A stretch of 64,000 bases of DNA from Desulfobacterales bacterium (GTDB lineage Bacteria > Desulfobacterota > Desulfobacteria > Desulfobacterales > UBA5852). Of the stretch, positions 7,290 through 21,020 are shown piece by piece (the first letter of the stretch is position 1; each line of letters opens with the position of its first letter). Both the position numbers and the translations under genes were made by a program. The notes below the pieces were generated by a model, which worked only from the letters and a program-made list of their open reading frames with translations, was not told the DNA's origin and searched no databases. The stretch lies in the NCBI GenBank assembly GCA_963674755.2, contig CAXXVS010000003.1:928001-992000 (forward strand), written 5' to 3'.

Positions 7290-7353
7290 GTTCCCTCCCC
7301 TCGTATGTGTTGTTAAAAGCACATGCAAATCAGGCGTGTTCAGGGCTTCGGCC

Positions 7354-8379
7354 TCAATTTTTGCCGAAGCCGCACAGGGGGTAGCGGCAGGTGGGGCAGC
7401 CGGAGCAGAATCCCCCGTGTCCCAGAGCGGCAATGGTGTCGCGTGTAACAGGTTCGCCGGCCAGCAGCCGCGGGATGAGCAGGTCGAAGATGCTGGTGCG
7501 GTAATACATGACACAACCCGGCAGGCCGGCTACCGGCACGTCGCCGATATAGGCCAGCATGAACATGGCCCCCGGGAAGACCGGGGCGCCATAGGTGATG
7601 ACCTCACCGCCCGCGGCCCGGATGCTGGCCGGGGTCTGATCGTCCGGGTCGACGGACATGCCGCCGGTGACCATCACCATTTCAGCCCCTTCGGCGATCA
7701 GCTCCCGAATGGCGTTGACGGTCATTTGCCGGTCGTCGGAAACCAGAATCTGACGCGTCACCTGGCAGCCGAGGTCCTTGAATTTCTTTTCGACGACCGG
7801 ACCGAAGGCATCCTTGATCCGTCCATGGTAGACTTCGCTGCCCGTGGTCACGATGCCGACCCGGCAGGCGTTGAAGGGTTTCACCTGGATGATGGGGCGG
7901 GATGCGGCGCAGATCTGCGCGACCCGCCGGATGGGGGCTTCTTCGATGATCAGGGGCACAACCCGCGTGCCGGCCAGCGGTTGCTCGGCTTTGACCGGCT
8001 GATGGCTGTGCAGGGTGGCAAAGGCAATGTCATCGATGGAATTGATACGGGTCAGGGCCTCCACGTCCACGACGAGCAGACCGTCGGTCTCGGCAATCAG
8101 GTTCACGCGCCCTTCCGAGGGATCGCTCAACCGGATTCCCGGGCCGGCCGCTGCTCGTGCCAAGCGTTCGGCCGCTTCGTTTTCATGCAGCATGCCCGGT
8201 TCCAGATCGAGGACATAGATGTGTTCCTTGCCGATCCTGAGAAATTCGGGGATCTCTTCGGCGCGGATGATGTGCCCTTTTTTAAAGGCGGGGCCTTTTT
8301 CCCGGCCCGGAATGATGCGGGTGATATCATGGGCCAGCACGCAGCCGACCGCTTCCTGGATAGGGATGGCATGAATCAT
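7354..8379 (-). CDS. Molybdopterin-binding protein (MoeA/MogA-like domain, C-terminal Cys cluster)
   Basis: Start ATG 8379; LAHDITRI, VTTGSE, TGGMSVDPDDQT, GLPGC; C-terminal CSGCPTCRYPLC; first gene of the aldehyde oxidoreductase operon. Confidence 0.85.
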   Translation of the reverse strand: MIHAIPIQEAVGCVLAHDITRIIPGREKGPAFKKGHIIRAEEIPEFLRIGKEHIYVLDLEPGMLHENEAAERLARAAAGPGIRLSDPSEGRVNLIAETDGLLVVDVEALTRINSIDDIAFATLHSHQPVKAEQPLAGTRVVPLIIEEAPIRRVAQICAASRPIIQVKPFNACRVGIVTTGSEVYHGRIKDAFGPVVEKKFKDLGCQVTRQILVSDDRQMTVNAIRELIAEGAEMVMVTGGMSVDPDDQTPASIRAAGGEVITYGAPVFPGAMFMLAYIGDVPVAGLPGCVMYYRTSIFDLLIPRLLAGEPVTRDTIAALGHGGFCSGCPTCRYPLCGFGKN

Positions 8380-9048: not shown

Positions 9049-9507
9049 TCATGTGGTACGGACGAAGAGGTGCTTGGCATCCCGGGGCGACTCCACCACC
9101 CGCTGAATTTTCTCCTCGATGTCCTTTTTCCGGAGCTCATCCTTGGTTTCCCAGGCCCCTTCGATCTTTTCGACCAGTTCGCTGATCTGGCAGGGTTTGG
9201 TCAGGTAGTCGTAAGCGCCCAGCTTGATCGCTTCCAGGGCCGAGTCGATGGAACCATGTCCGGTCAGAATCAGGGTTTGGGTAAAAAGCCCCAGTTTCTT
9301 GATTTCCTTCAGAGTGGTCAGCCCGTCCATCCCCGGCATTTTAAGGTCCAGCACGACCACGTCGAAATCTTCGTTCTGCAGCGCCCGGATGGCTTCCGCG
9401 CCGCTGTTGACCGCTGTGGAGCGATAGCCGCGGGCATCCAGCAGGGTTTCCATGTTGCGGGTGAAAATGACTTCATCATCCACCAAGAGTATTTTTGATC
9501 CGATCAT
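9049..9507 (-). CDS. Single-domain response regulator (REC) with short charged C-terminal tail
   Basis: LLVDDE, VLDLKMP (phospho-Asp), LTGHG, LTKP; AAAGGAGG RBS. Confidence 0.92.
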   Translation of the reverse strand: MIGSKILLVDDEVIFTRNMETLLDARGYRSTAVNSGAEAIRALQNEDFDVVVLDLKMPGMDGLTTLKEIKKLGLFTQTLILTGHGSIDSALEAIKLGAYDYLTKPCQISELVEKIEGAWETKDELRKKDIEEKIQRVVESPRDAKHLFVRTT

Positions 9508-9574: not shown

Positions 9575-11380
9575 TCATGCGGCCTGCTCCACCGGGATCA
9601 CATGATCACGTGTTGCGGTTTTAGCGTCCGACGACCGTACGGGCAGCCGGATGATAAAATCGGTTCCCTGGTCGACGACGCTCTTCACCTGAATCCGCCC
9701 CCCCAGCCCCTTGATGATGCTGTAACAGATGGACAGCCCCAGGCCCGTTCCCCGCCCCGTAGGCTTGGTGGTGAAGAAGGGATCGAAGACCTTGGACAGG
9801 ACCTCTCCCGACATGCCGGAACCCGTGTCCGAGACCACGATCTCCACGGTTTCGTCGGCTTCCAGGTAGGTGGTGCTGATGGCCACGGATCCATATTGTT
9901 TGCCCTCGTGGGCGTCGATGGCGTTGGTGATGAGGTTCAAAAAGACCTGCTGGAGCTGGGAAATGTCCGACAGGATCGGCGGTACCTCCGGGGACAGCCG
10001 TTCGAAAAAGGTAATGCCGGAAGACTTGGCCTCCCGTTCCATCAGGTCGACGATCTCGCTGATGAAGGCGTTGATATCCACCGTGTCGATGACGGACTGG
10101 GTGCGGCGGGAAAAGCGGAGCAGATTGTGGGTGATGCGCTTGCAGCGCTGGATCTGAACGTCGATCTGGTTCAGGGAATCGTCCAGCTGGGCGCCGAAGG
10201 CCGAATCGAGATGGTCGACCCTTTGGCAGGCGTCCAGCAAAATCTCCCGTTCCGTCGAAATGATGGCCAGGGGATTGTTGATTTCATGGGCCACCCCCAC
10301 CGAGAGTTCGCCGATGGAGGCCATTTTGCTGGCCTGCATAAGCTGACGATTCAAGGTTTCGGCCTTGGCGTCCCGGCGTTTTACCAGGTTCAGCATGTGG
10401 CGGGTGACCAGAACCGTGGCCCCCAGGATGGTGACGGCGCTGATGAGCAGGAAGATCAGCACCGAATAATTGGCCCGGTTCTCGGTTGCAAAGGCTTCGT
10501 CGTAATCCTGCCGGACGACCAGCATCCATTGGGGGGTCTCCAGCCAGGCCGTGGCAACGATCTGGCGCACGGTGCGTTCTCCATTGAAACCGGCGTCAGC
10601 GGCCTCCTGCCGCACCTGGATGCCGGGATGAATGTCGCCCACCTTTATGGCGGCATTTTCCATGATCCGGCCGCTATAGCGGGAAGTGGTCTGGTAGACG
10701 CCTTGCGGGTTGACAAGGAAGACTTCGCCGGTGCGGCCGATCATGACATTCTCCACCAGCGCCCGGAAGGCCTCCGTATCCACGGTGGCCCGCAGGATCC
10801 AGGGACCTGCCGCGTCATTGCCTTTGACCGCGATGATGAAGTGCGGTTCGCGGCGGAACCCCATGAACATGTCGCTGATGAAAATTCCCTTCTCCATGAC
10901 CTGGCCGAACCAATGCGTCGTGCGATAGTTTTTATCCAGCAGGTCGTAGGGCCCTACATACGCCAGATGCCGGCCTTCGCCGTCGATGACCCCGAGATCG
11001 GTCACGTTCCAGTGCTCCTGATTGAACAGGTCGAAAACGGTCCGCAACCGCCCGGGCTGAACCAGATCCTGACGGTCATGGGTCTGGGCGATGAGTTCCA
11101 GTTTGGCGCGATGTTCCTTCAAGAACAATTGGATGACTTTGCGATGGTGCTGGACCTCGTTGCGGAAGGCGGTCATGATGCGCGTCTCGGCTGAACGCTG
11201 GTAGCGATGGCTGATCACCCACCCCACCAGGAGCAGGGGCACCACCGAGCAGACCAGCGTCAGGAGGACAAACCGTTTGAAAAGCCGTTTGTAGCGATGG
11301 CTCTGATCGCTATCGGAAACCGTCGTGCTGGCAGGATCGGAAACGTTTGCAGGTAAGTCCGGCATGCGGCCTCCTTGCAT
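9575..11380 (-). CDS. Membrane sensor histidine kinase (periplasmic Cache-like domain)
   Basis: Two TM segments; H-box GVAHEINNPL; N-box QQVFLNLITNA; DTGSG; FFTTK; GTGLGL. Start could be 11365. Confidence 0.92.
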   Translation of the reverse strand: MQGGRMPDLPANVSDPASTTVSDSDQSHRYKRLFKRFVLLTLVCSVVPLLLVGWVISHRYQRSAETRIMTAFRNEVQHHRKVIQLFLKEHRAKLELIAQTHDRQDLVQPGRLRTVFDLFNQEHWNVTDLGVIDGEGRHLAYVGPYDLLDKNYRTTHWFGQVMEKGIFISDMFMGFRREPHFIIAVKGNDAAGPWILRATVDTEAFRALVENVMIGRTGEVFLVNPQGVYQTTSRYSGRIMENAAIKVGDIHPGIQVRQEAADAGFNGERTVRQIVATAWLETPQWMLVVRQDYDEAFATENRANYSVLIFLLISAVTILGATVLVTRHMLNLVKRRDAKAETLNRQLMQASKMASIGELSVGVAHEINNPLAIISTEREILLDACQRVDHLDSAFGAQLDDSLNQIDVQIQRCKRITHNLLRFSRRTQSVIDTVDINAFISEIVDLMEREAKSSGITFFERLSPEVPPILSDISQLQQVFLNLITNAIDAHEGKQYGSVAISTTYLEADETVEIVVSDTGSGMSGEVLSKVFDPFFTTKPTGRGTGLGLSICYSIIKGLGGRIQVKSVVDQGTDFIIRLPVRSSDAKTATRDHVIPVEQAA

Positions 11381-11457: not shown

Positions 11458-11472
11458 TCAAGAAATGTGCCA
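11458..11472 (-). promoter_or_regulatory. sigma54 (-24/-12) promoter for the HK-RR-ykvA genes
   Basis: Minus strand reads TGGCACATTTCTTGA (TGGCAC-N5-TTGA, -12 variant). Confidence 0.65.
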
Positions 11473-11652: not shown

Positions 11653-13914
11653 TCAGACCAGCCGGGGCCAGAAGGGCTTCTGGACTTCAAGCACCATGGC
11701 GATGGCGGAGGGGAGATGGGCGGCCGGCGTGTTTCCGGGGGGGGCCGCATCGCGGCGTCCGGAACCGGTGATGCACAGCTCCTGAAGAAACCGCAGTCCG
11801 CATTCTTCGATGCCTTTGACGCTGTAGCCGCCCTCCAGGATAAAGGCGATGCGCCCGCGGCAAACCAGCTCGGCCATTTGGATCAGCAGGGCGGTGAGGG
11901 TGCCATAGCCGGCCGGAGACACCTGCATGCCCCCCAGCCGGTCATGCCGGTAGAGATCGAACCCCAGGGAAACCAGGATGAAATCGGGTTCGAATTGGCG
12001 GGCCAGGGGCACGATAACGCGTCGGACGGCGCAGATGAAATCCCGGTCTCCGGCGCCTTTGGGCAGCGGAATATTGACCGTGAACCCTTTTCCCGGTCCG
12101 CGGCCGACCTCCCCCAGGTTCCCGGTGCCCGGATAGGCCGGGAAACGATGGGTGGAGACATACAATACGGTGTCGTCTTCATAAAAAGCCGTTTGGATGC
12201 CGTTGCCGTGGTGGGCGTCCAGATCGACGATCATGATTCGGTGCAGGCCATGGTTGTTTTGCAGATACCGCGCGGCCAGAGCGGCATTGTTGAGCAGGCA
12301 GAAACCCATGGCCCGGTCCGGTTCGGCGTGGTGCCCGGGCGGGCGTACGGCGGCCATCCCACGGGTTGCCCGGCCGTCGCAGATCCCGTCCAGCAGGTGA
12401 AAAACGCCTCCCACGGCCAGACAGGCCACTTCCCATGAGCGGGCCGTGGTCTGGGTGTCCAGATCCAGGGTGACCAGTTGCCGGCCGGCGGTTCGTTCCA
12501 ACCGGTCCAGGTAGTCGCTGGTATGGATCCAGAGCAGTTGCTCGCGTTCGGCCGGTGCCGCCATCAGCGAATGCCAGCGACCGGCAACGCTCGGGTGGGC
12601 CAGTGCCCGTTGGAAGGCCTCGAACCGTTTGGGGCTTTCCAGGTGAAACACATGCTGCAGATGCAGGGCGAAGCGCGGATCGTCGACCACCAGGATGGTG
12701 GTTTGGGTATCGGGTTCCGTGCCGGCGATTTTCACCCGGCAGGCCCGGGTGGCGAAATCGATAAGCGATGCGGCTTCGGGTATCCGGCGTTCGTTTTTCA
12801 GCAGAAGCGCCAGGGCCGTGGTCGCCGGATAAGGTTGGCGGTCGCACATGAGGCAGTGCTTGATAAACGCCAAACGCCATGGACGGCGGAGGTTGTGATC
12901 CGGTTTGCATAGGGCCTTGAGGGTGTTCTCGATGTAGCGTTCCAGCTTGGGCCGCACCCGACCGATGGGCGTCCGTTCATCGTCGGCCATGTCGGCAATG
13001 GCGGACAACAGATAGCCGCGCGGGGTTTTCAGGACGAACCGGCACAGCCGCTGTTCCTGGAAACCGCAGTCCCGATAAAATTGCTGGGCGCCCACCTCGC
13101 CGTCCAGAAAAATATGACGGACCTGGGGGAGCAGGGCCTGCCACAGCATCCAGGCACCCGCCACCAAAAAGGTGCCGACCCCCTGAGGGGGCTGCTGGAT
13201 ATCCTCCTGGTGCGGCATGCGCCGGGCAATATAGCGGATTTCAAGACGGGTATTGGCGACTTGCCGGTGCAACTCGAGCTTGACGAGCCCCCAAATGTCC
13301 TGCTGCACGATGCAGGCGAAGATCCAGGGCAAGGTCCCGTCCGTCCAGCTCTCCAGAACAAACCGGACGTCGAAGAATTCGAAGCGCTGCGCGGCCATTT
13401 GGGACAGGGTTGCCCGGTTGAGGGGCAGGGGAATGAAGCGGGCCGGTTGGCCGCCGGCCAGGTGGCCGCTGAAATGCGGTCCGTCGGCGCGGAAGTCCGG
13501 CATGCGCAGGGCGGCGTCCAGATCGGCGGGCACCTTCGGCAGACGCCGCAGCTCATGGTTCACAAGGGCGGCGGCCCCGGCCTGGCGCATATCGCCGGCC
13601 AGCTGCCGTACGTTGCCGGATATCCAGGCGGTGGTGCAGGCGTGCTTTTGCCGGAGTTCCCCCAGTTTGAAGACCAGCGATTGTTCCAGGATGGGGATGC
13701 CGCGGGCCACAAAGGCGGTTTTGGGGATGTCCACCCGTTCCCCGTCGAAATAGTAATGGAAAGAACGCGTACCCGCCACCTGATCACGGGCCTGTTCAGA
13801 AGCCGGGACCGTAATGCGGTGTGCATCGAACAGGCCCCTGAGTCCTAAACCGGCGGCCGGATCAACGGCGTTGACAGCGGCGATGGCCGCCTGGAGATGT
13901 TCGGGCTTGATCAT
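11653..13914 (-). CDS. Fusion protein: uncharacterised N-terminal region + GNAT-like acetyltransferase domain + Zn-dependent HDAC/AcuC-family deacylase
   Basis: C-terminal RPPGHHA, GFCLLNN, DLDAHHGNG, YPGTG, GFDLYRHD, LEGGY (full HDAC catalytic set). Central LEIRYIA...QGVGTFLV...HIFLDG...AQQFYRDCGF matches GNAT motif A/B. Confidence 0.85.
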   Translation of the reverse strand: MIKPEHLQAAIAAVNAVDPAAGLGLRGLFDAHRITVPASEQARDQVAGTRSFHYYFDGERVDIPKTAFVARGIPILEQSLVFKLGELRQKHACTTAWISGNVRQLAGDMRQAGAAALVNHELRRLPKVPADLDAALRMPDFRADGPHFSGHLAGGQPARFIPLPLNRATLSQMAAQRFEFFDVRFVLESWTDGTLPWIFACIVQQDIWGLVKLELHRQVANTRLEIRYIARRMPHQEDIQQPPQGVGTFLVAGAWMLWQALLPQVRHIFLDGEVGAQQFYRDCGFQEQRLCRFVLKTPRGYLLSAIADMADDERTPIGRVRPKLERYIENTLKALCKPDHNLRRPWRLAFIKHCLMCDRQPYPATTALALLLKNERRIPEAASLIDFATRACRVKIAGTEPDTQTTILVVDDPRFALHLQHVFHLESPKRFEAFQRALAHPSVAGRWHSLMAAPAEREQLLWIHTSDYLDRLERTAGRQLVTLDLDTQTTARSWEVACLAVGGVFHLLDGICDGRATRGMAAVRPPGHHAEPDRAMGFCLLNNAALAARYLQNNHGLHRIMIVDLDAHHGNGIQTAFYEDDTVLYVSTHRFPAYPGTGNLGEVGRGPGKGFTVNIPLPKGAGDRDFICAVRRVIVPLARQFEPDFILVSLGFDLYRHDRLGGMQVSPAGYGTLTALLIQMAELVCRGRIAFILEGGYSVKGIEECGLRFLQELCITGSGRRDAAPPGNTPAAHLPSAIAMVLEVQKPFWPRLV

Positions 13915-13920
13915 GGCCCA

Positions 13921-14808
13921 TCATTCCGCAAGCGGTTCACCGGCATCGACATGGGCATCGTCCAGGTAAATCAGTACATCCCGCAGCCGAACCACCCCCA
14001 GGACCCGCCGGTTCGCATCGGTTACCGGCAATGTGCGAAACCCCTTGTCCATCATAAGCGCGGCAACTTCCCGCAACGGGGTTTGAGGCGTCACGGCAAT
14101 GGTTTCCCGCTGCATCACCGCGGCCACGGTTTTATCCGGCAGCCATTGGGGATTGGCGGAAAGTTCCTGCCAGGTGGGCATGACGCCCGTGTCGGGCCGC
14201 GCGACCTGGCGGACGATGTCCTGTTTACTCAAATGGCCGCTCAGGCAGCCCTCGGCATCCACGATGAAAAGGGTTTCGCCCGCCATCCGGGGCAGTCGGT
14301 GGTTGAAAACGGAGAAGGCTTCCAAGAGGGGATCGGCATCCTCGATCCGGCGAAAGGCCTCCAGGATCAATTCCCCGGCGGTCGAACGCGGCCACAGGAT
14401 GGGACGGCGTCGAATTTGTCCGATGGTACAGGCCACCTCCAATTTGGCCACCAGGTCCTCGATGCTGCAGGGTTTCATGAGATAATCGAAAGCCCCCTGC
14501 CGGATGGCCTCGATCCCGGTTTCCAGGGAGGCATGACCGGTCAGCATGATGACCGGCGGTGGCGAGGCCTTTTGCTGGATACGGCCCAGGGCGGTCAGGC
14601 CGTCCATCAGGGGCATGCGGATATCCAACACCAGGACATCAAAAGGCTGGTGGTCGATCAATTCCAGGGCCCGGCGGCCGTCACCGGCCGTGGCGACCTG
14701 GAAATGGTGTCTTTCCAGAAGCCTGCGCATCTGCGTGCAGAACCGCTCCTCATCGTCCACCAGCAGCACCCGCCGGGGCGGCGTGGTTTTTAGCGAGGCC
14801 TGTTCCAT
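13921..14808 (-). CDS. Response regulator with REC + tandem CBS domains
   Basis: LLVDDE, VLDIRMP, LTGH, KP; then two CBS-like repeats (LFIVDAEGCLSGHLSKQD; TLPVTDANRRVLGVVRLRD); 6-bp gap to the deacetylase fusion. Confidence 0.9.
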   Translation of the reverse strand: MEQASLKTTPPRRVLLVDDEERFCTQMRRLLERHHFQVATAGDGRRALELIDHQPFDVLVLDIRMPLMDGLTALGRIQQKASPPPVIMLTGHASLETGIEAIRQGAFDYLMKPCSIEDLVAKLEVACTIGQIRRRPILWPRSTAGELILEAFRRIEDADPLLEAFSVFNHRLPRMAGETLFIVDAEGCLSGHLSKQDIVRQVARPDTGVMPTWQELSANPQWLPDKTVAAVMQRETIAVTPQTPLREVAALMMDKGFRTLPVTDANRRVLGVVRLRDVLIYLDDAHVDAGEPLAE

Positions 14809-15170: not shown

Positions 15171-15186
15171 TGGCACTCGGTTTGCA
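15171..15186 (+). promoter_or_regulatory. sigma54 promoter for the CBS micro-protein gene
   Basis: TGGCACTCGGTTTGCA, canonical GG-N10-GC. Confidence 0.75.
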
Positions 15187-15294
15187 GTCGCGTTAGATCA
15201 ACGTCGGCGCGCCGCCGATCACCTTCCCCCTGATGCGGCGTGAGGCCTGGACCACATGACAGCCCACCTGACGCAGACGATCTTTCCCGGGGGC

Positions 15295-15519
15295 ATGATG
15301 GACACCCGTACCCTGAGCAATGTCCGCGAGATCCTTCTTCCGTATTCCGGTGACCTGCCGTTGACGCCCGCGGTCAGCATCGAGGATTCGATCTCCAGAG
15401 TCATCGAGGTCATGGTCCGGCACAATGTACGCATCCTGCCCGTATTCCGCGATAAGCGCCCCGTAGGGCAGGTGCGTATGCAAGATGCGTTTGCCATCCT
15501 GGGCATCCGGATGCCCTGA
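15295..15519 (+). CDS. Small single-CBS-domain protein (~74 aa)
   Basis: VSIEDSISRVIEVMVRHNVRILPVFRDKRPVGQVRMQD is a CBS repeat; start ATG 15295/15298 (track start 15256). Confidence 0.75.
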   Translation: MMDTRTLSNVREILLPYSGDLPLTPAVSIEDSISRVIEVMVRHNVRILPVFRDKRPVGQVRMQDAFAILGIRMP

Positions 15520-15575: not shown

Positions 15576-17024
15576 CTATACCGGAGAGGCATCCATCTCC
15601 GGCGCATCGGCTTCCCCGTCGGCCAGTTCTTTATAGTCCTCGGTCACGAGTCCCGCTTCTTTCATGAGACGGTGCAGGTACTGGCGCTGGATGCCTGCCT
15701 TCAGGGCGGCCCGGCTCACATTGCCGCCATTGTCACGCAGCAGATGATCGATATACTGCCGGTGAAAGATCGCGATCATCTGCTCCTTGGCATCCTTGAA
15801 TGCCAGCTGACGAAGGTCGGGCGGGAGGGTATAGGGCCCCTCCGGCGCTTCCGGGGCTTGGTCAAGGAAAAGATCGGCGGTTCGCAGCGTCGCGGTCCGG
15901 CAGAAAATGACGCCCCGTTCGATGATATTTTCCAATTCCCGCACGTTGCCGGGATAATCAAGCGTCATGAGCCGTTGCATGGCCCGCGGGCTGATGGCGG
16001 TAATGGCCTTTTGGTTGAGGACGGCATATTTTTTTAGGAAGTGCTGACCGAGCAGAGGAATATCGCCACGCCGGGCCGCCAGGGGCGGCAATTCGATATT
16101 GATCACATTGAGGCGGTAATAGAGATCCTCCCGGAAGTTCCCCCGGGCGATTTCTTCCTTGAGGAGGCGATTGGTGGCCGCAATGAAGCGGATGTCGGCC
16201 TTGCGGGTGGCATTGCCGCCTACGGGCCGGTATTCGCCTTCCTGGAGCAGGCGGAGCATCTTGGTCTGCAGGACGGGGCTCAGGTCGCCGATTTCATCCA
16301 GAAACAAGGTGCCGCCATGGGCGTCTTCGGCCAGGCCGCGCTTGTCTTTCCAGGCGCTGGTAAAGGCGCCCTTCAGGTGACCGAAAAGTTCGCTTTCGAG
16401 CACGTTTTCCGGAATGACGGTGCAGTTGAGGGTGACGAAACGCTTCGTGCGGCGGCGGCTATGGTCATGCAAGGCTTTGGCCACCAATTCCTTGCCGGTT
16501 CCGCTGGGGCCGGTGATGAGGACGGTGCCCTGGGTGGGGGCGACCTGGCGGATGCGTTCGAAAATGTCGTGCATCACCGGCGTCGTCCCCAGCAGCGCGG
16601 CAAACCCGTTCCGCTGGCCCAAGGCCTCCCGCAGGGCGTGATTTTCACGGCTGACGGTCTGAAAACTCATCACGTTTTCGATGGTCACCAGGATGCGTTC
16701 GCGGCGGAAGGGTTTGGTGATGAAATCGCAGGCCCCCTTGCGGGTGGCTTCGACCGCCGTATCGATGGTCCCGAAGGCGGTCATGACCACCACCGCCAGG
16801 GCCGGGTCGACCGACTTGACCTTTTCCAGCAGGCGCAGGCCGTCCATTCCGGGCATCTTGAGATCCGTTATCACCATATCGAAACCGCCGGTCTTGACCT
16901 TTTCCAAGGCGTCCAGGGGGTCATGGGTGGTGACCACTTTGTGGCGGGTTTCTTCGCTGATGATGCGCTCGATCAACAGCAACATATCCCGTTCATCGTC
17001 CACGATCAGGATGCTTCCTCTCAT
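15576..17024 (-). CDS. sigma54-dependent response regulator (REC-AAA+-HTH, NtrC family)
   Basis: IVDDE/TDLKMP; Walker A GPSGTGKE; ESELFGH-GAFTSA; LFLDEI; FREDLYYRL; PGNVREL; Fis-like HTH. Confidence 0.95.
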   Translation of the reverse strand: MRGSILIVDDERDMLLLIERIISEETRHKVVTTHDPLDALEKVKTGGFDMVITDLKMPGMDGLRLLEKVKSVDPALAVVVMTAFGTIDTAVEATRKGACDFITKPFRRERILVTIENVMSFQTVSRENHALREALGQRNGFAALLGTTPVMHDIFERIRQVAPTQGTVLITGPSGTGKELVAKALHDHSRRRTKRFVTLNCTVIPENVLESELFGHLKGAFTSAWKDKRGLAEDAHGGTLFLDEIGDLSPVLQTKMLRLLQEGEYRPVGGNATRKADIRFIAATNRLLKEEIARGNFREDLYYRLNVINIELPPLAARRGDIPLLGQHFLKKYAVLNQKAITAISPRAMQRLMTLDYPGNVRELENIIERGVIFCRTATLRTADLFLDQAPEAPEGPYTLPPDLRQLAFKDAKEQMIAIFHRQYIDHLLRDNGGNVSRAALKAGIQRQYLHRLMKEAGLVTEDYKELADGEADAPEMDASPV

Positions 17025-19156
17025 ACGGCCTCCTGCTGACGTTGGGGCAATTTTACGATGAAGGTGGTACCACTCCGCTCCCGGCCGCCTGAATCGCGGC
17101 TTTCACAGTGAATGGATCCGCCGAAGCTGGTGATGATGCCGTAACTGACAAACAGTCCCAGCCCGGTTCCCTCGCCTTCGGGTTTGGTCGTGAAAAAGGG
17201 TTCGTAGATGCGGTCCAGGTCGGCCTCGGGGATGCCGCGGCCGGTGTCCGATACCTTGACGACCGCATTCCGGCTGCTTTTGTCGAAAGATGCGCGGATG
17301 GTCAGCAGGCCGCCGTCGGGCATGGCCGCCACGGCGTTGTTCATGAGATTGAGAAAGACCTGCTGAAGCTGCCGGCAGTCGCCCCGCACGGCGGGCAGCC
17401 GACGGGCGATGTCGGTTTTGAGGGTGACGGTGCGTCGTTCAATGCTGTGGCGGGCCACCTTGATGATTTCCTCCAGACAGTGATGCAGATCGGTGCTTTC
17501 CTCGGACACCTTGCGGTCCCGGGCGAAGCTGAGCAGATTGTCGACAATTTCTTTGCAGTGCAGTCCCTGCCGTTCGATGATTTTCAAGTCGTCATAGGCT
17601 TGGCTGCCCGGCGGCTGCTTGCGAACCAGCAGGTCGCAAAACCCCAGGATGACGCCCAAGGGGTTGTTGATCTCATGGGCCACCCCGGCCGCCAGGGTCC
17701 CCAGGGCGGCCAGTTTTTCGGTGGCGATCAGGTTGCGCTGCAAGGTTTTATTCTCGGTGATATCCCGTGCGATGCACAGGGCGGCATGGATTTCGCCGGC
17801 TTCGTTTTTCAACGGCATATAGTTGGCATTGAGCCATACCGCAGGATCCACGGACCGGATTTCGATTTCTTCGCGGACACTGCGCCCGGTGGCGAAAACC
17901 TGTTGAACGGCCTTGATGTTGCGCTGCCCCACATCGTCGCTCAGCAGATCGGCCAGGGGGCGGTCCACTAGGTTGTCGGGATCGCTGCCGAAGAAATGGG
18001 CCGTGTAGCTGTTGACGGATTTCAAGCGGACGGCGGCATCCAGGGTGAAGATAAAGTCCTCGGCGCTCTCGATGAGCAGACGGTATTTTTCCTCCGAGCG
18101 TTTCAGCGCCTGGGTGCGGACTGCCACCAGTTTTTCCAGGCGACGGGAGAAACGGATTTCGAACAGGAACAAAGCCGCGGCCGCCGCTGCCACGACCAGG
18201 ATCATCAGGGCCTGGAGCATCAGCTGCCAGCGATGGATCTTGCCGACGGTGTCTGCGATTTCGTGGGTCGGGGCGACCACCGCGACACTCCAAAACTGGC
18301 GGGGTGTCTGGGCAACGTGAATGGGGCAATAGGCGATCAGCTTGGCAATTTCGCCGGTGAGCCCCCTGTGCCAGCCCGATTGATAGGTTCCGGTGCCTTC
18401 CCGGCCTTGCAGCATCTCTTCCTTCTGGATGTGATCGATTTGGACGAAGTCCAGATCGGGATAGGTTTCCTGACGTGCTTCGAAGACGCTGCGGCCGATA
18501 TAATCCGTGAAGGGATGATAGAGGAAACGGCCCTGATCGTCGATGATCCATGCATAGCCGCTGTTGCCGGAGCGAATGTTCTTGAGGAGCGGGGTGAGAA
18601 ACCAGGCCAGGTCGACCTTCAGCAGGAGCAATTGCTCCCGGCGGCGGTCCAGCGCGGTTGCCAGGGACAGGATCATCCGGGAACCGCTTACGCGGGGGCG
18701 GACCACGCTGATTTCACCCGGTTCCGGCAGCGTTGCCATGGCCGGCATGGGCCGTGCCGAGGCGGCCGATTGGACGGCGGAACCATAAGCATACACCCAT
18801 AGCGTATCGGCGCTCCGGTTCCAGACCTGAATTTCCATGACCCCGGCCTTGCCCAATCGCTCCAGTTCGATTGGCAGGTAGGCCTGCTGTTCGGCCGGAC
18901 CCGGCGGCGCCGCCGTGATCCTTACGGCCAGTTGCAGCAGCTCTTCCTCCAGGATACCGAGGGATTGTTCCACCAGCATCTGGGTGCTGCGCGCTACGGC
19001 GAGCTGCTCCTGGTTGAACTGATCGCTGACGAGCATGACCATCTGTCGCCCGAATCGAATCTGTACCACGGTGGCCACCAACAGGGTTACGGCCGCGGCG
19101 GCCACGATAATCCAGGCGGGCCCCTGTCGGGGATTCATGTGTGCGATCGTGTCCAT
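17021..19156 (-). CDS. Cache/PAS sensor histidine kinase
   Basis: TM, SGYAWIIDDQGRFLYHP (Cache), TM, PAS, GVAHEINNPL, FFTTKPEGEGTGLGL; 4-bp ATGA overlap with the sigma54 regulator. Confidence 0.93.
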   Translation of the reverse strand: MDTIAHMNPRQGPAWIIVAAAAVTLLVATVVQIRFGRQMVMLVSDQFNQEQLAVARSTQMLVEQSLGILEEELLQLAVRITAAPPGPAEQQAYLPIELERLGKAGVMEIQVWNRSADTLWVYAYGSAVQSAASARPMPAMATLPEPGEISVVRPRVSGSRMILSLATALDRRREQLLLLKVDLAWFLTPLLKNIRSGNSGYAWIIDDQGRFLYHPFTDYIGRSVFEARQETYPDLDFVQIDHIQKEEMLQGREGTGTYQSGWHRGLTGEIAKLIAYCPIHVAQTPRQFWSVAVVAPTHEIADTVGKIHRWQLMLQALMILVVAAAAAALFLFEIRFSRRLEKLVAVRTQALKRSEEKYRLLIESAEDFIFTLDAAVRLKSVNSYTAHFFGSDPDNLVDRPLADLLSDDVGQRNIKAVQQVFATGRSVREEIEIRSVDPAVWLNANYMPLKNEAGEIHAALCIARDITENKTLQRNLIATEKLAALGTLAAGVAHEINNPLGVILGFCDLLVRKQPPGSQAYDDLKIIERQGLHCKEIVDNLLSFARDRKVSEESTDLHHCLEEIIKVARHSIERRTVTLKTDIARRLPAVRGDCRQLQQVFLNLMNNAVAAMPDGGLLTIRASFDKSSRNAVVKVSDTGRGIPEADLDRIYEPFFTTKPEGEGTGLGLFVSYGIITSFGGSIHCESRDSGGRERSGTTFIVKLPQRQQEAV

Positions 19157-19351
19157 GGCGTGGTTAAGGGCAGCAAATCATGTGCCAGGGAAAAGGCGCC
19201 GCCCGGGGGTATTCCTACCCGGGAAAAAAGCCGTTGCGCGGGCGGCTGGGGCCGGGGAGGCGTGCCTCAGGCGCAACGGCCTGTCAGTTTTTTTTACTGA
19301 TTGTAAATCAACATCGCCGGCATTCGCCTGCCAGACGATGGGGGTGTGGTA

Positions 19352-19888
19352 TCAGACGCCCCAAAAGGCGATGATCACAAACGCCAGGCAGGCCGCGCAT
19401 ACCGTGTGGCTTACGACGCCTTTTTTAAGGGGATGGAAATGCGCTTCGTTGCGCCGATGACCGTCCGGGCAGATATATTCCACGACTGTCCGGCCGCTGC
19501 GCTTGGACACGTGGCGGATCCGCCTGACCGGCGCGCCGCAGAAACCGTGCGCGTCCTTTGAGCGGGCCTGACAGGTCATGCGGTTGCCCGCGACGAGGCT
19601 GGTCAGGTTGTAGATCCAGTTCCAGGTGATGGCCCCGATCAGAAGCGTGAGCAGTATGATGATGACATGGCGCTGGGTGACCCCCAGGGACGATAGGGAA
19701 GCGCCAATATTGGCGGGGGTCAGGGGGCCTTCCACCGTTCCGAAAAGCCCCAGGTAATAAAGGAAGAAGCTGACCCCCATGACGATCAGGGTCAGGCCGA
19801 AGTTGTGCAGACGGCTACGCGCGAAGCCATGGGAAGGCCGGCCGGTTCCGGTCGTATCCATCGTCGGGGGGGGATATGATTTGCTCAT
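19352..19888 (-). CDS. Hypothetical membrane protein with a Cys/His-rich loop
   Basis: AGGAG RBS before ATG 19888; three hydrophobic segments; loop with C...C...CPDGH. Confidence 0.7.
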   Translation of the reverse strand: MSKSYPPPTMDTTGTGRPSHGFARSRLHNFGLTLIVMGVSFFLYYLGLFGTVEGPLTPANIGASLSSLGVTQRHVIIILLTLLIGAITWNWIYNLTSLVAGNRMTCQARSKDAHGFCGAPVRRIRHVSKRSGRTVVEYICPDGHRRNEAHFHPLKKGVVSHTVCAACLAFVIIAFWGV

Positions 19889-19930
19889 CGCGGGGCATCT
19901 CCTGTTTGGTCTCAAGGGCGTGGATCAAAT

Positions 19931-19973: not shown

Positions 19974-21020
19974 TCAGGCACCGGCCAATTTGTGCATGAT
20001 GTCCGGGATGATTTTGTAGAAGGCATAGGCCGTCAGTACGAGGCAGTAGGCCGGCACCACGATCTTCCACAGCTTTTCGGGAAAGACGCGTGTCATGTAG
20101 GGCGCCGCCACGGCCGAGAACATGGTGGCCAGCATGAAGCTGGGCAGCAGGATGTAGTCGATCTGCACCCCGCTGGTCAGCATGCCGATCCAAATCAGCA
20201 CCGCGATGGTGCTCACCGTGCCCTCGCTGATGGCGGTAACCGCCAGCATGCTCTTGACCGGTACGCCGGCCAGCAGACCGCCGATGGTCACCACCGGCCC
20301 GTAGCCGCCGCCCCCCACGCCCTTGTTGAACCCGGCCAGAGCGGCCCACAGAACCATGCGTTTGGGGCGATAGGGTCGGTCCTTCCTGGACTGGAACAAT
20401 GAAACCGCGCCCATCATGAGCAGCAGCAATGCCACGTAGAGTTTGATCCAGATTTTACCCACATGGAAGATCTTGTAGACCCCGATGATGGCCGTGAGGT
20501 TGAACAAAACGCCGGTTCCGGCGATGATGAGCCAGAGCTTGACGGTTTCGCTCATGGGTGAAAATTTCCATTCCACGTTTTCGAATTCCCGATGCAGGAA
20601 GGCCCCCACCAGGCCGGCCGCGCCCTGCTGGATCATGACCACCGGCACGATCTGTTTGGGATCGAAGCCCACCATGAGCAGCAGCGGGGTCAGGGCCGTG
20701 CCGAAGCCCATGCCGGCCGAGGCGTCCATGAATTCGAAGAAGGCGGCAATCAATACCACGCTCCAGACGATGCTCCACTCGTTGCCCATAAGCCCGTGCT
20801 CCACGACATACTTGGAGGGCATGCGTACGGTGGCCTCGAAGGGATTGCCGGCCAGCCAGATGCCCACGAAAAAGAGCACGAAGAACACGGCGATGCCGCC
20901 GCCGGCCGCCTTGACGTGGTTCCACTCGGGAATCAGGCGCTCCAATATGGTTTTCTTTTTGCCTTCGAGGTCCCGGGCGACCTCCCATCCTGCCACTCTT
21001 TCATTGGTTCCGTTGCTCAT
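19974..21020 (-). CDS. Sulfite exporter TauE/SafE (TSUP) family permease
   Basis: MDASAGMGFGTALTPLL and NKGVGGGGYGPVV repeats; many TM helices; AAGGAGG RBS. Confidence 0.88.
   Translation of the reverse strand: MSNGTNERVAGWEVARDLEGKKKTILERLIPEWNHVKAAGGGIAVFFVLFFVGIWLAGNPFEATVRMPSKYVVEHGLMGNEWSIVWSVVLIAAFFEFMDASAGMGFGTALTPLLLMVGFDPKQIVPVVMIQQGAAGLVGAFLHREFENVEWKFSPMSETVKLWLIIAGTGVLFNLTAIIGVYKIFHVGKIWIKLYVALLLLMMGAVSLFQSRKDRPYRPKRMVLWAALAGFNKGVGGGGYGPVVTIGGLLAGVPVKSMLAVTAISEGTVSTIAVLIWIGMLTSGVQIDYILLPSFMLATMFSAVAAPYMTRVFPEKLWKIVVPAYCLVLTAYAFYKIIPDIMHKLAGA

Follow-up and report, generated by a model that had tools for sequence, protein, structure and literature searches.

Organization of the locus

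The window, i.e. the whole stretch of 64,000 nucleotides analysed here, encodes a GNAT~HDAC fusion enzyme next to a receiver protein with a tandem CBS pair, REC-CBS (Table 1). Three features pointed out in an earlier, sequence-only reading are borne out: according to the ORF coordinates, the REC-CBS gene ends exactly 6 bp before the GNAT-HDAC start; REC-CBS has an intact phospho-Asp, its receiver residues being kept in orthologues, and no Pfam match to a DNA-binding domain; and on the same strand, after a 272-bp gap, a dCache kinase (HK3) and then a single-domain receiver (REC3) follow. Three kinases and three receivers surround the enzyme. A sigma54-like site is located inside the 272-bp gap, and such a site is found upstream of the HK3 orthologue in 10 of 39 cases (0.3 expected); the region upstream of REC-CBS in the window holds no sigma54-like site with at least 9/10 consensus bases. 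The HK3 start is more likely at 11365, where it is preceded by AAGGAGG. The small single-CBS protein is present in 24 of 42 related loci.

Table 1. Genes and sequence features around the GNAT-HDAC enzyme (positions in the window).
Feature	Position	Strand	Remarks
TauE/SafE-family transporter	19974..21020	-	cassette member
hyp187, small membrane protein	19352..19915	-	conserved Cys/His, no Pfam match; strict cassette member
HK1, dCache-PAS kinase	17021..19156	-	likely paired with the sigma54 activator; sigma54 consensus site, 19173-19187
NtrC-type sigma54 activator	15576..17024	-	part of flanking two-component system
Small stand-alone single-CBS protein, divergent	15256..15519	+	full sigma54 consensus at 15171-15185
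REC-CBS protein, 295 aa	13921..14808	-	receiver intact; linker conserved; two CBS repeats with a conserved insertion; adaptor predicted to plug the deacetylase
REC-CBS linker, residues 134-141 (RRPILWPR)	14386..14409	-	L138/W139 predicted inside HDAC tunnel
Spacer, 6 bp	13915..13920	-	junction formed when a ~1.67-kb pseudokinase gene, still found in relatives, was lost
GNAT~HDAC fusion, 753 aa	11653..13914	-	four-part architecture
GNAT-fold domain of fusion	13015..13482	-	AF2 model and conserved residues
HDAC domain of fusion	11665..12702	-	catalytic residues; family-specific L425 and R659 at tunnel mouth
Sigma54-like promoter element	11458..11472	-	9/10 consensus bases; upstream of dCache kinase HK3
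HK3, dCache histidine kinase	9575..11380	-	H-box intact (H365)
REC3, single-domain receiver	9049..9507	-	Pfam; nearest genomic paralogue of the REC-CBS receiver

The GNAT-HDAC enzyme

The fusion consists of an N-terminal helical domain (residues 1-125), a GNAT fold (~145-300), a helical spacer (~300-390) and a class II-like Zn deacetylase (~405-750; Pfam Hist_deacetyl 424-710, E 6.5e-90). The deacetylase displays all classical features of its kind, i.e. the HH dyad, the D-x-H and D Zn ligands and the Tyr of the GGY motif, in 42/42 sequences, with H528, H529, D566, H568, D653, D658 and Y697 kept throughout. Its closest solved relatives are the class II-like HDAC6, HDA15 and HdaH (VIA Z 33-38 against class II-like structures), and an affinity to class I was not found. 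All catalytic and Zn-binding residues are common to HDAC6 CD2, HDA15, bacterial HdaH and the enzyme described here, which differs by its N-terminal GNAT module and by L425 and R659 in place of commoner tunnel-mouth residues. Neither residue occurs in 75 outgroup HDACs (0%), which come from a scan of genome contigs with HDAC patterns; that scan gave mostly stand-alone HDACs, with 4 of 80 loci full-length, and the outgroup was drawn from the remainder. L660 corresponds in the alignment to the DPLG-motif Leu of HDAC6 CD2, a position that we take to be a marker of lysine versus polyamine specificity.

The acetyltransferase half is visible mainly in structure. Pfam and NCBIfam gave no GNAT match in the window's fusion protein, and a Foldseek search with the full fusion model had only HDACs among the matches listed. 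The GNAT fold was exposed by VIA-align of residues ~145-310 of the AF2 model: the top matches were RimJ (Z 12.7, rmsd 2.8, 152 aligned) and TacT2 (Z 12.5, rmsd 2.6, 136 aligned), and many GNATs followed at Z 11-12.7 and rmsd 2.4-3.7, a tie that does not indicate the substrate. ESM Atlas neighbours of this part carry GNAT names (0.92), and Pfam Acetyltransf was weakly detected at E<=0.001 in two of six relatives scanned and more faintly in one. Conservation centres on G245 (42/42) and G247 (41/42), which form a G-x-G loop that presumably binds acetyl-CoA, and on Y280 (41/42), G284 (41/42) and F285 (42/42) in a downstream FY..GF stretch, which we take to be a GNAT motif. The N-terminal GNAT module has no relatives beyond its own family (102 clusters), and residues 1-135 gave no usable ESM Atlas match, domain 1-125 matching no known family. 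Of 40 loci, 30 have GNAT and HDAC in one protein; in a quick tree, nine split forms are scattered among the fused ones, mostly at open forks. For two of these nine, G165b and G266, the GNAT reading frame is broken and the split form may be an artefact.

The REC-CBS protein

Pfam assigns a receiver (Response_reg 14-123, E 1e-32) and one CBS repeat (228-282) to the window's REC-CBS. The first repeat is backed by the AF2 model, by an HHalign match to a tandem-CBS protein (120 columns, prob 97.4) and by Pfam, which detects two CBS stretches in each of the two orthologues scanned; Foldseek with the REC-CBS model had only receiver domains among the matches listed. The receiver signature (DD, phospho-Asp, T/S, K) is complete in all 34 aligned orthologues, with D18, D19, D62, T90 and K112 invariant. 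The CBS pair is C-terminal to the receiver, the protein stops ~10 residues past CBS2, and an ACT domain is absent by Pfam and in the AF2 model. Generic CBS nucleotide and ribose-binding motifs are retained (G191, T/S194, D197; G271, D277).

The linker between receiver and CBS pair is the most conserved eight-residue window past the receiver (0.85 versus a CBS-half mean of 0.53): among the 34 sequences, W139 and R141 are invariant, and P136 and L138 are each kept in 33. Its invariance, seen before any complex was predicted, goes together with a pLDDT below 50 in the monomer model, a combination that would be anticipated for a motif that binds a partner. The motif is present in 53/53 aligned enzyme-linked REC-CBS sequences and, in the window's genome, in a single one of 167 REC-hit ORFs. 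It is absent (0/5) from a second REC-CBS clade, found in the same genome (C2:422546-423457) and in five related loci beside a DASS transporter, Yip1 and a dCache kinase, with no acetylation enzyme nearby.

Predicted complex of REC-CBS and the deacetylase

Complex prediction, a check proposed by the sequence-only reading, placed REC-CBS in the HDAC tunnel and gave no confident contact to the GNAT part; the three runs scored 0.78, 0.78 and 0.66 (median 0.78), the best of three controls 0.00. Among solved complexes 116 of 157 pass the score mark, among mismatched pairs 2 of 215, a calibration that holds only roughly with our own alignments. The runs have at least 77% of contacts in common, with a partner pLDDT of at least 80. 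The lowest-error predicted contacts are G537, F538, Y594, H568 and H529 for L138, and L425 and L660 for W139 (partner numbering +11); receiver residues 102-107 and 125-133 also lie at the predicted interface. The idea that the receiver stands in for the ACT domain of AcuB therefore does not hold at the level of the domain: the predicted binding element is the Leu-Trp linker together with the alpha4/alpha5 face of the receiver.

Since the three controls were unrelated proteins, with neither a generic HDAC nor the second REC-CBS clade among them, the model may also reflect the docking of a conserved hydrophobic motif into an invariant pocket. The enzyme was modelled up to residue 728, leaving out the C-terminal helix; in some bacterial deacetylases a helix of this kind lines the rim of the active site (PMC11532494). 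On the HDAC side, family-specific conservation shows no enrichment at the interface (Mann-Whitney test, p=0.42; Fisher test, p=0.52, 2/27 positions). G237, the only near-complete genome with the enzyme but without REC-CBS, has the most interface mismatches (13/27, median 6) and the only change at P592 among 42 sequences (n=1); G016 and G368, which both have REC-CBS, come near it with 11 and 12.

A cassette conserved across the order

The sequence-only reading had named neighbourhood conservation as a check, and REC-CBS and the enzyme are indeed co-conserved across the order: among 401 genomes, the enzyme occurs in 40, REC-CBS in 37 and both in 35 (35/40, 35/37), counts that include kin genomes and are not independent. 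One genome, G246 (71% complete), has a REC-CBS with intact motif, and no enzyme was found in it. The two genes belong to a larger cassette with a TauE transporter, the small membrane protein hyp187 and a pseudokinase (HK2). Co-occurrence is common to these members too, hyp187 occurring in 30 of 351 genomes, each of which has the GNAT half as well, and thus does not single out the REC-CBS/enzyme pair.

In most relatives, TauE is directly upstream of hyp187-REC-CBS. In the window lineage, TauE and hyp187 have been relocated upstream of HK1, and REC-CBS remained 6 bp from the enzyme; G039 shows a comparable separation of REC-CBS from hyp187. In five genomes that have the flanking kinases, the cassette is exchanged or absent as one unit. 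Alternative cassettes occupying its position comprise a transporter and a lone REC, and sister cassettes contain a PPDK-like phosphotransferase-type protein instead.

HK2 is located between REC-CBS and the enzyme in 29 of the 32 loci showing REC-CBS. It is a dCache membrane sensor and a paralogue of HK3. The phospho-His of HK2 is absent in 26/29 sequences, and its N, G1, F and G2 boxes are kept; Pfam finds HATPase_c without a HisKA match in 5/5 scanned. Its receiver-docking helix is conserved (D at H+4 in 28/29; N 90%, I 86%). The window's genome lacks an HK2 orthologue (best matches 27-34%), and comparison of the junction with loci L116 and L002 revealed that in both of these loci a CCATGA marks the start of the pseudokinase as well as that of the enzyme. 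Because the pseudokinase normally lies between the two genes and was deleted in the window lineage, the 6-bp gap is derived, and we rejected it as an ancestral coupling. Loss of the phospho-His with retention of the other boxes and of the receiver-docking helix is reminiscent of Caulobacter DivL (PMC4211667). HK2 differs from DivL in being a dCache membrane sensor and HK3 paralogue without a fixed Tyr that is dispensable in the window lineage.

The likely kinase

Both neighbouring kinases had been suggested as phosphodonors; the specificity residues keep HK3 as a candidate and disfavour HK1. Within the genome, REC3 is the nearest paralogue of the REC-CBS receiver (41%), and of the four specificity residues REC-CBS has three in common with REC3 (F, N, L) and none with the sigma54 activator; at one such position the consensus residue is N, but the receiver of the window carries Q. 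Judged by these residues, HK3 is the likely kinase of both REC-CBS and REC3.

Mechanism and alternatives

The observations are best explained if REC-CBS is a dedicated inhibitor of GNAT-HDAC whose Leu-Trp linker plugs the deacetylase tunnel and whose phosphorylation, likely by HK3, likely switches the plug, a reading to which we assign a probability of roughly 0.58; the interface itself is predicted from models. The system could operate in the following manner: Binding of REC-CBS would block deacetylase activity, by analogy with Met188 of AcuB. Phosphorylation of the receiver may shift its alpha4-beta5-alpha5 face, which is part of the predicted interface, and adenine nucleotides may feed in through the CBS pair. 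While the eraser is plugged, the GNAT fused to it would prevail, leaving the target acetylated; a membrane sensor kinase would thereby switch deacetylation directly. In a more tentative, wider form, REC-CBS would be a new response-regulator output, a phosphorylation- and nucleotide-gated inhibitor of an HDAC-family enzyme with an origin independent of AcuB, which turns a fused and otherwise futile GNAT-HDAC into a kinase-controlled switch, likely acting on the cassette's transporter, with the dispensable pseudokinase as an extra input.

Alternatively, REC-CBS might regulate TauE/hyp187 or serve the phosphorelay, as a phosphate sink or partner of the pseudokinase, and be co-operonic with the enzyme by mere arrangement, the complex being an artefact. 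The second REC-CBS clade with its DASS transporter, the transporter and lone REC of the alternative cassettes, the equally strict co-occurrence of hyp187 and the negative conservation test on the HDAC side all fit such a role, which we nevertheless consider unlikely given the complex score, the restriction of the interface motif to the enzyme-linked clade and the history of the window lineage, which moved TauE/hyp187 and lost the pseudokinase but kept REC-CBS beside the enzyme, and a similar separation from hyp187 in G039.

Other alternatives concern what the enzyme acts on. REC-CBS could be a substrate or a substrate-recruiting adaptor of an enzyme that (de)acetylates signalling proteins, with feedback on the phosphorelay: substrates, too, bind at the active-site mouth, the enzyme is embedded amid kinases and receivers, and acetylation of response regulators, e.g. 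PhoP, is reported. The residue placed in the tunnel, however, is Leu in 33 of 34 orthologues and Met in one, never Lys, and the linker has no conserved lysine, which makes this the least probable of the readings. Only a little more credible is an enzyme pair acting on a small molecule, such as an amine or amide moved by TauE, in which case REC-CBS may still gate the hydrolase. The transporter is a fixed cassette member, the bacterial HDAC-fold enzymes among the PDB matches include small-molecule amidohydrolases, sister cassettes have the PPDK-like protein, and the tied GNAT neighbours are uninformative; against this, the best sequence matches are the protein deacetylases HDAC6 and HDA15, L660 matches the DPLG Leu, and a futile fused writer/eraser with a protein inhibitor would suit signalling over catabolism.

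Relation to known systems

Among response regulators, CheB, PleD and RssB have enzymatic or protein-binding outputs; common to them and REC-CBS is receiver phosphorylation steering a non-transcriptional output, whereas the output predicted here would be to block the active site of a deacetylase in trans, through a protein that also carries a CBS sensor. Our full-text search, which covered few subscription papers, listed no description of a REC-CBS deacetylase inhibitor or of the cassette.

The nearest parallel is AcuB-AcuC of the Bacillus/Geobacillus acuABC-acsA locus, which likewise combines a GNAT, a Zn deacetylase and a tandem-CBS adaptor; inhibition of a bacterial HDAC-type enzyme by the protein AcuB was shown only in 2026. 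The proposed AcuABC likeness stands for the mode of action, as judged from the complex prediction, and falls for descent. In AcuB, M188 was modelled in the AcuC tunnel and M189R abolishes inhibition (PMC13039410; PMC13121692), so that M188 and L138 would both be hydrophobic adaptor side chains in a deacetylase tunnel, and the CBS ribose-binding motifs are common to both adaptors. The main AcuC-binding site of AcuB, in contrast, is its ACT domain (PMC13039410), in place of which receiver and linker form the predicted interface; the tandem CBS of AcuB is N-terminal; and its nucleotide-bridging Arg33-His34 motif aligns with E178-T179, a position occupied by E/D in 29/34 orthologues and never by His. 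AcuC is a class I HDAC (PMC13039410), whereas the HDAC here is class II-like and mostly fused to its GNAT, with kinases, pseudokinase and TauE transporter attached.

If the inhibitor reading is true, this cassette in one order of sulfate-reducing bacteria is a second, convergent solution with another plug, another HDAC class and direct two-component control; it would link lysine acetylation to a His-Asp phosphorelay with no transcriptional step in between and offer an answer to how one writer and eraser polypeptide escapes a futile cycle. A natural eight-residue plug of an HDAC6-like tunnel would be of structural interest, the two named residues, L138 and W139, make the prediction cheap to test, and the window lineage is the simplest version to reconstitute because it lost the pseudokinase.

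As targets, the TauE/hyp187 pair or signalling proteins of the cassette are better candidates than acetyl-CoA synthetase. An adjacent gene for an AMP-forming acetyl-CoA synthetase was not found, nor was one among the recurrent neighbour families; the only AcsA above the cut-off in the window's genome is on another contig, and AcsA, lacking genomic support, is a less likely target. The same genome has a separate acuC-acuB-like pair, in which a CBS-ACT protein (C3:109876-110553) beside a stand-alone HDAC (C3:110659-111609) carries the RH motif.

The pair and its gene neighbourhood

The sequence-only reading had paired a receiver-tandem-CBS protein (REC-CBS) with a fused acetyltransferase-deacetylase (GNAT~HDAC, here "the enzyme"). 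This pair stands: the two minus-strand ORFs are spaced by 6 bp, the receiver residues D18, D19, D62, T90 and K112 are each present in 34/34 sequences, every catalytic and Zn residue is kept in a second set of 42/42 HDAC domains, and the AF2 model reveals a GNAT fold. Although the 400 N-terminal residues of the enzyme match nothing in Pfam or NCBIfam, residues ~145-310 of this model (mean pLDDT 80.7) superpose on many GNATs (best Z 12.7, rmsd 2.8, 152 aligned; top GNAT rows tied), residues 130-400 have GNAT-named neighbours in the ESM Atlas (0.92), and G245, G247, Y280, G284 and F285 are each kept in 41-42 of 42 aligned sequences, one of which is a wrong-frame ORF. Confidently modelled as a helical domain, with conserved positions and no Pfam or Atlas match, the first 125 residues are a candidate substrate-binding domain. 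The CBS pair retains the motifs G-h-h-T/S-x-x-D and G-h-h-R-x-x-D, which are compatible with adenine-nucleotide binding.

Coordinates of the features discussed (window numbering unless a fetched locus, L, is named; G000, window's own genome with contigs C2 and C3)
Feature	Coordinates	Strand	Remark
REC-CBS	13921-14808	-	295-aa ORF; receiver plus CBS
Enzyme	11653-13914	-	753-aa ORF; HDAC domain at residues 424-710
Enzyme helical domain	13540-13914	-	
HK3	9575-11380	-	dCache histidine kinase
REC3	9049-9507	-	single receiver
HK1	17021-19156	-	dCache-PAS kinase
Sigma54 activator	15576-17024	-	NtrC-type
Small CBS gene	15256-15519	+	single-CBS protein, 70-90 aa
hyp187	19352-19915	-	small membrane protein
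TauE	19974-21020	-	transporter
Sigma54-like site	11472		upstream of HK3
Sigma54-like site	19187		upstream of HK1
Sigma54-like site	15171		upstream of small CBS gene
Molybdopterin aldehyde oxidoreductases	1683-4409, 4572-7514	-	tandem paralogues
Gene run of stand-alone HDAC, CBS pair, PrmA and sirtuin	L154:8122-11610 (G000 C3:108121-111609)		
Second fusion	L159:8174-10426 (G000 C3:2355173-2357425)		750 aa; HDAC 266-571
CBS-CBS-ACT protein	L156:17570-19865 (G000 C2:437569-439864)		
dCache kinase array	L155:5978-19444 and L156:2547-7988 (G000 C2:~409000-428000)		20 kb
Second GNAT half	L143:9001-10392 (G165)		stand-alone
Pat-type acetyltransferases	L137:13809-16508, L150:3207-5759, L150:17703-19616, L115:17490-20000		

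Across 40 loci from 39 other genomes, the typical order is HK1 - sigma54 activator - (divergent small CBS) - TauE - hyp187 - REC-CBS - HK2 - GNAT~HDAC - HK3 - REC3. REC-CBS is visible at 32/40 loci (misses: six contig ends, one second partial copy, one true loss), the enzyme is fused at 30, split at nine and GNAT-only at one, and HK3 is the next recognised gene at 34/40. HK2, a pseudokinase, separates REC-CBS from the enzyme at 29 of the 32 REC-CBS-bearing loci. An alignment of 29 HK2 ORFs >500 aa out of 34 (27 from fetched loci, two from a separate contig search) lacks the His in 26 and the E-x-N-N-P motif in all 29, with Asp at H+4 in 28; the ATP-binding boxes are retained. HK2 resembles DivL, a protein devoid of kinase and phosphatase activity that binds a phosphorylated receiver (PMC4211667). 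No HK2 orthologue occurs in the window's genome (best matches 27-34%). The 6-bp gap is the product of a clean HK2 deletion and not ancestral, because, around a common CCATGA, the junction corresponds to both ends of HK2 as it stands in the close relatives G395 and L002, and because a quick tree unites these relatives with the four HK2-less rows (support 100).

Distribution and the cassette as a unit

Of 401 genomes drawn from the order, 40 have a match to the N-terminal half of the enzyme; a profile of this half finds 3 among 401 drawn from the phylum, only one of them outside the order (G747, identical gene order). Against 1.84 billion representatives, the same profile yields 102 clusters, many of them fragments. 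Named matches are Desulfosarcina and uncultured Desulfobacterales, and the order is accordingly taken to be Desulfobacterales. A profile of the CBS half, based on enzyme-linked loci, has hits in 37 of the 401 order genomes (E<=1e-25), and co-conservation is borne out by 35 genomes with both proteins. Among the five enzyme-only genomes, the gene lies at a contig end in four and REC-CBS is truly absent from one (G237, 96% complete). The two REC-CBS-only genomes, G246 and G396, are 71% and 80% complete; REC-CBS and the pseudokinase reach the contig end in G396, and other genes come after REC-CBS in G246. The cassette is a real signalling unit restricted to the order. G165 carries a second GNAT half with no HDAC neighbour in the fetched stretch.

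HK3 orthologues occur in 58/401 genomes, about 20 of them without the enzyme, and 15 loci were fetched from such genomes. At five (G046, G124 and G209, from the genus of seven cassette-bearing genomes, plus G148 and G225), both flanks keep their two-component genes and TauE-hyp187-REC-CBS-HK2-enzyme is absent, or swapped for another transporter and a lone receiver, sometimes with a PPDK-like gene. The remaining ten have different or truncated contexts, and none contains a REC-CBS of the enzyme-linked clade. hyp187 is found in 30/351 genomes, all 30 with the enzyme. Because the block is missing or replaced as a whole and hyp187 strictly accompanies the enzyme, these five genes act as one unit; co-occurrence by itself cannot tell which member REC-CBS acts on. 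hyp187, without a Pfam match, has two predicted membrane segments and conserved C...C...C-x-x-G-H...H-F-H residues, possibly metal-binding.

Predicted interface and mechanism

Complex prediction with REC-CBS 12-283 (53-row alignment) and enzyme 1-728 (50 rows; shortened to fit 1000 residues, which removed the C-terminal helix) passed the check, with scores of 0.78, 0.78 and 0.66 in three runs versus 0.00 for the best of three controls, which were not close decoys. The runs share at least 77% of their contacts, and the partner pLDDT is at least 80. The score mark is reached by 116/157 solved complexes and 2/215 mismatched pairs, counts that are only rough with own alignments. Confident contacts are confined to the HDAC domain (422-425, 478-488, 529, 536-538, 568, 592-603, 660). 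In the model, L138 of the linker (REC-CBS residues 134-141) contacts G537, F538, Y594, the Zn ligand H568 and the catalytic H529, W139 contacts L425 and L660, and both are flanked by the ends of receiver alpha4 (102-107) and alpha5 (125-133). The proposed replacement of ACT by a receiver needs correction: the predicted binding element is the linker together with the alpha4/alpha5 face of the receiver.

In favour of this interface, the linker is the most conserved eight-residue window past the receiver (0.85 vs 0.53), although its pLDDT is <50 in the REC-CBS monomer model. Its motif occurs in 53/53 aligned proteins and 1/167 REC-hit ORFs of the window's genome, and is missing in 5/5 members of a second REC-CBS clade, the companion of DASS transporters. 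Against it, and compared with 75 stand-alone HDACs, HDAC interface positions show no more family-specific conservation than others (p=0.42); family-specific positions amount to 2/27 at the interface vs 19/306 elsewhere (p=0.52). Interface mismatches are most numerous in G237, the genome that lost REC-CBS (13/27 vs median 6) and that has the sole P592 change, but two REC-CBS-bearing genomes nearly match its count.

HDAC-peptide complexes exist in the PDB. Even so, the prediction is unlikely to recall a solved AcuB-AcuC complex, because both AcuB papers report that no such structure was obtained (PMC13039410; PMC13121692). The most likely mechanism, at a probability of roughly 0.58, is that REC-CBS, under kinase control, would plug the eraser half (HDAC) of the fused writer-eraser.

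Comparison with AcuB-AcuC

The predicted L138 placement parallels that of AcuB M188, an ACT-domain residue that modelling places in AcuC at the SAHA site; the M189R mutant no longer inhibits (PMC13039410; PMC13121692). In contrast to AcuB, REC-CBS has no ACT domain and has E178/T179 where R33/H34 align, so that the R-H motif is absent; the HDAC is class II-like, unlike AcuC, and, unlike in acuABC-acsA, no acs is adjacent. The pair is predicted to work like AcuB-AcuC but, for these reasons, does not belong with it. Acetyl-CoA synthetase as a target gains no genomic support.

In G000, a stand-alone HDAC is followed after 3 bp by an AcuB-like CBS-pair protein that carries the R-H motif and whose C-terminal extension shares 29% identity with a CBS-ACT protein; PrmA and a sirtuin belong to the same run of genes. 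This is the better AcuC-AcuB candidate, likely a genuine acuC-acuB pair outside Bacillota. The same genome encodes a second, unrelated acetyltransferase-deacetylase fusion with two Pfam GNAT stretches, neighbouring lysine-2,3-aminomutase-like radical SAM and D-Ala-D-Ala-ligase-like genes, and has a Pat-type ATP-grasp/GNAT gene with a CBS-CBS-ACT protein encoded downstream. Full-text literature searches listed no account of the cassette or of a deacetylase inhibitor that contains a receiver.

Wiring, promoters and neighbouring modules

At the four specificity positions, those named in a rewired RR468 structure, REC-CBS has R/F/N/L, REC3 I-V/F/N/L, the second REC-CBS clade Q/F/T/I and the sigma54 activator D/M/L/I. 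Moreover, no receiver in the window's genome is closer to that of REC-CBS than REC3 (41%). HK3 therefore seems the likelier kinase of both, and HK1 that of the sigma54 activator; of the two kinases put forward earlier, HK3 is favoured for REC-CBS and HK1 disfavoured. Sigma54-like sites recur in relatives upstream of HK3 (10/39), TauE (13/33) and the small CBS gene (15/24, a strong promoter), against 0.1-0.3 expected. HK3-REC3 probably has a promoter of its own, and the cassette is probably transcribed under the activator. The small single-CBS gene remains with the flanking two-component system where the cassette is absent; its product could complete, or compete for, a CBS pair.

The G000 array comprises paralogous dCache kinases, many lone receivers, TauE, a PPDK-like gene, two DASS transporters, a Yip1-like protein and a second-clade REC-CBS, and its modules recur next to the cassette in relatives. 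The tandem molybdopterin oxidoreductases, accompanied by a MoeA-like gene, were ruled out as cassette members, since recurrence is limited to the MoeA-like gene and to the closest relative. Pat-type acetyltransferases adjoin the cluster in a few genomes, and one of these neighbours is an acetyl-CoA hydrolase-GNAT fusion. Sister cassettes of a TauE transporter, a PPDK_N/PEP-utilizer-type protein and lone receivers (L166, L167, L169, L172-L177, L183) occupy the position of the acetylation cassette, or one close to it; the combination of transporter, modifying enzyme and receiver may be a general architecture.
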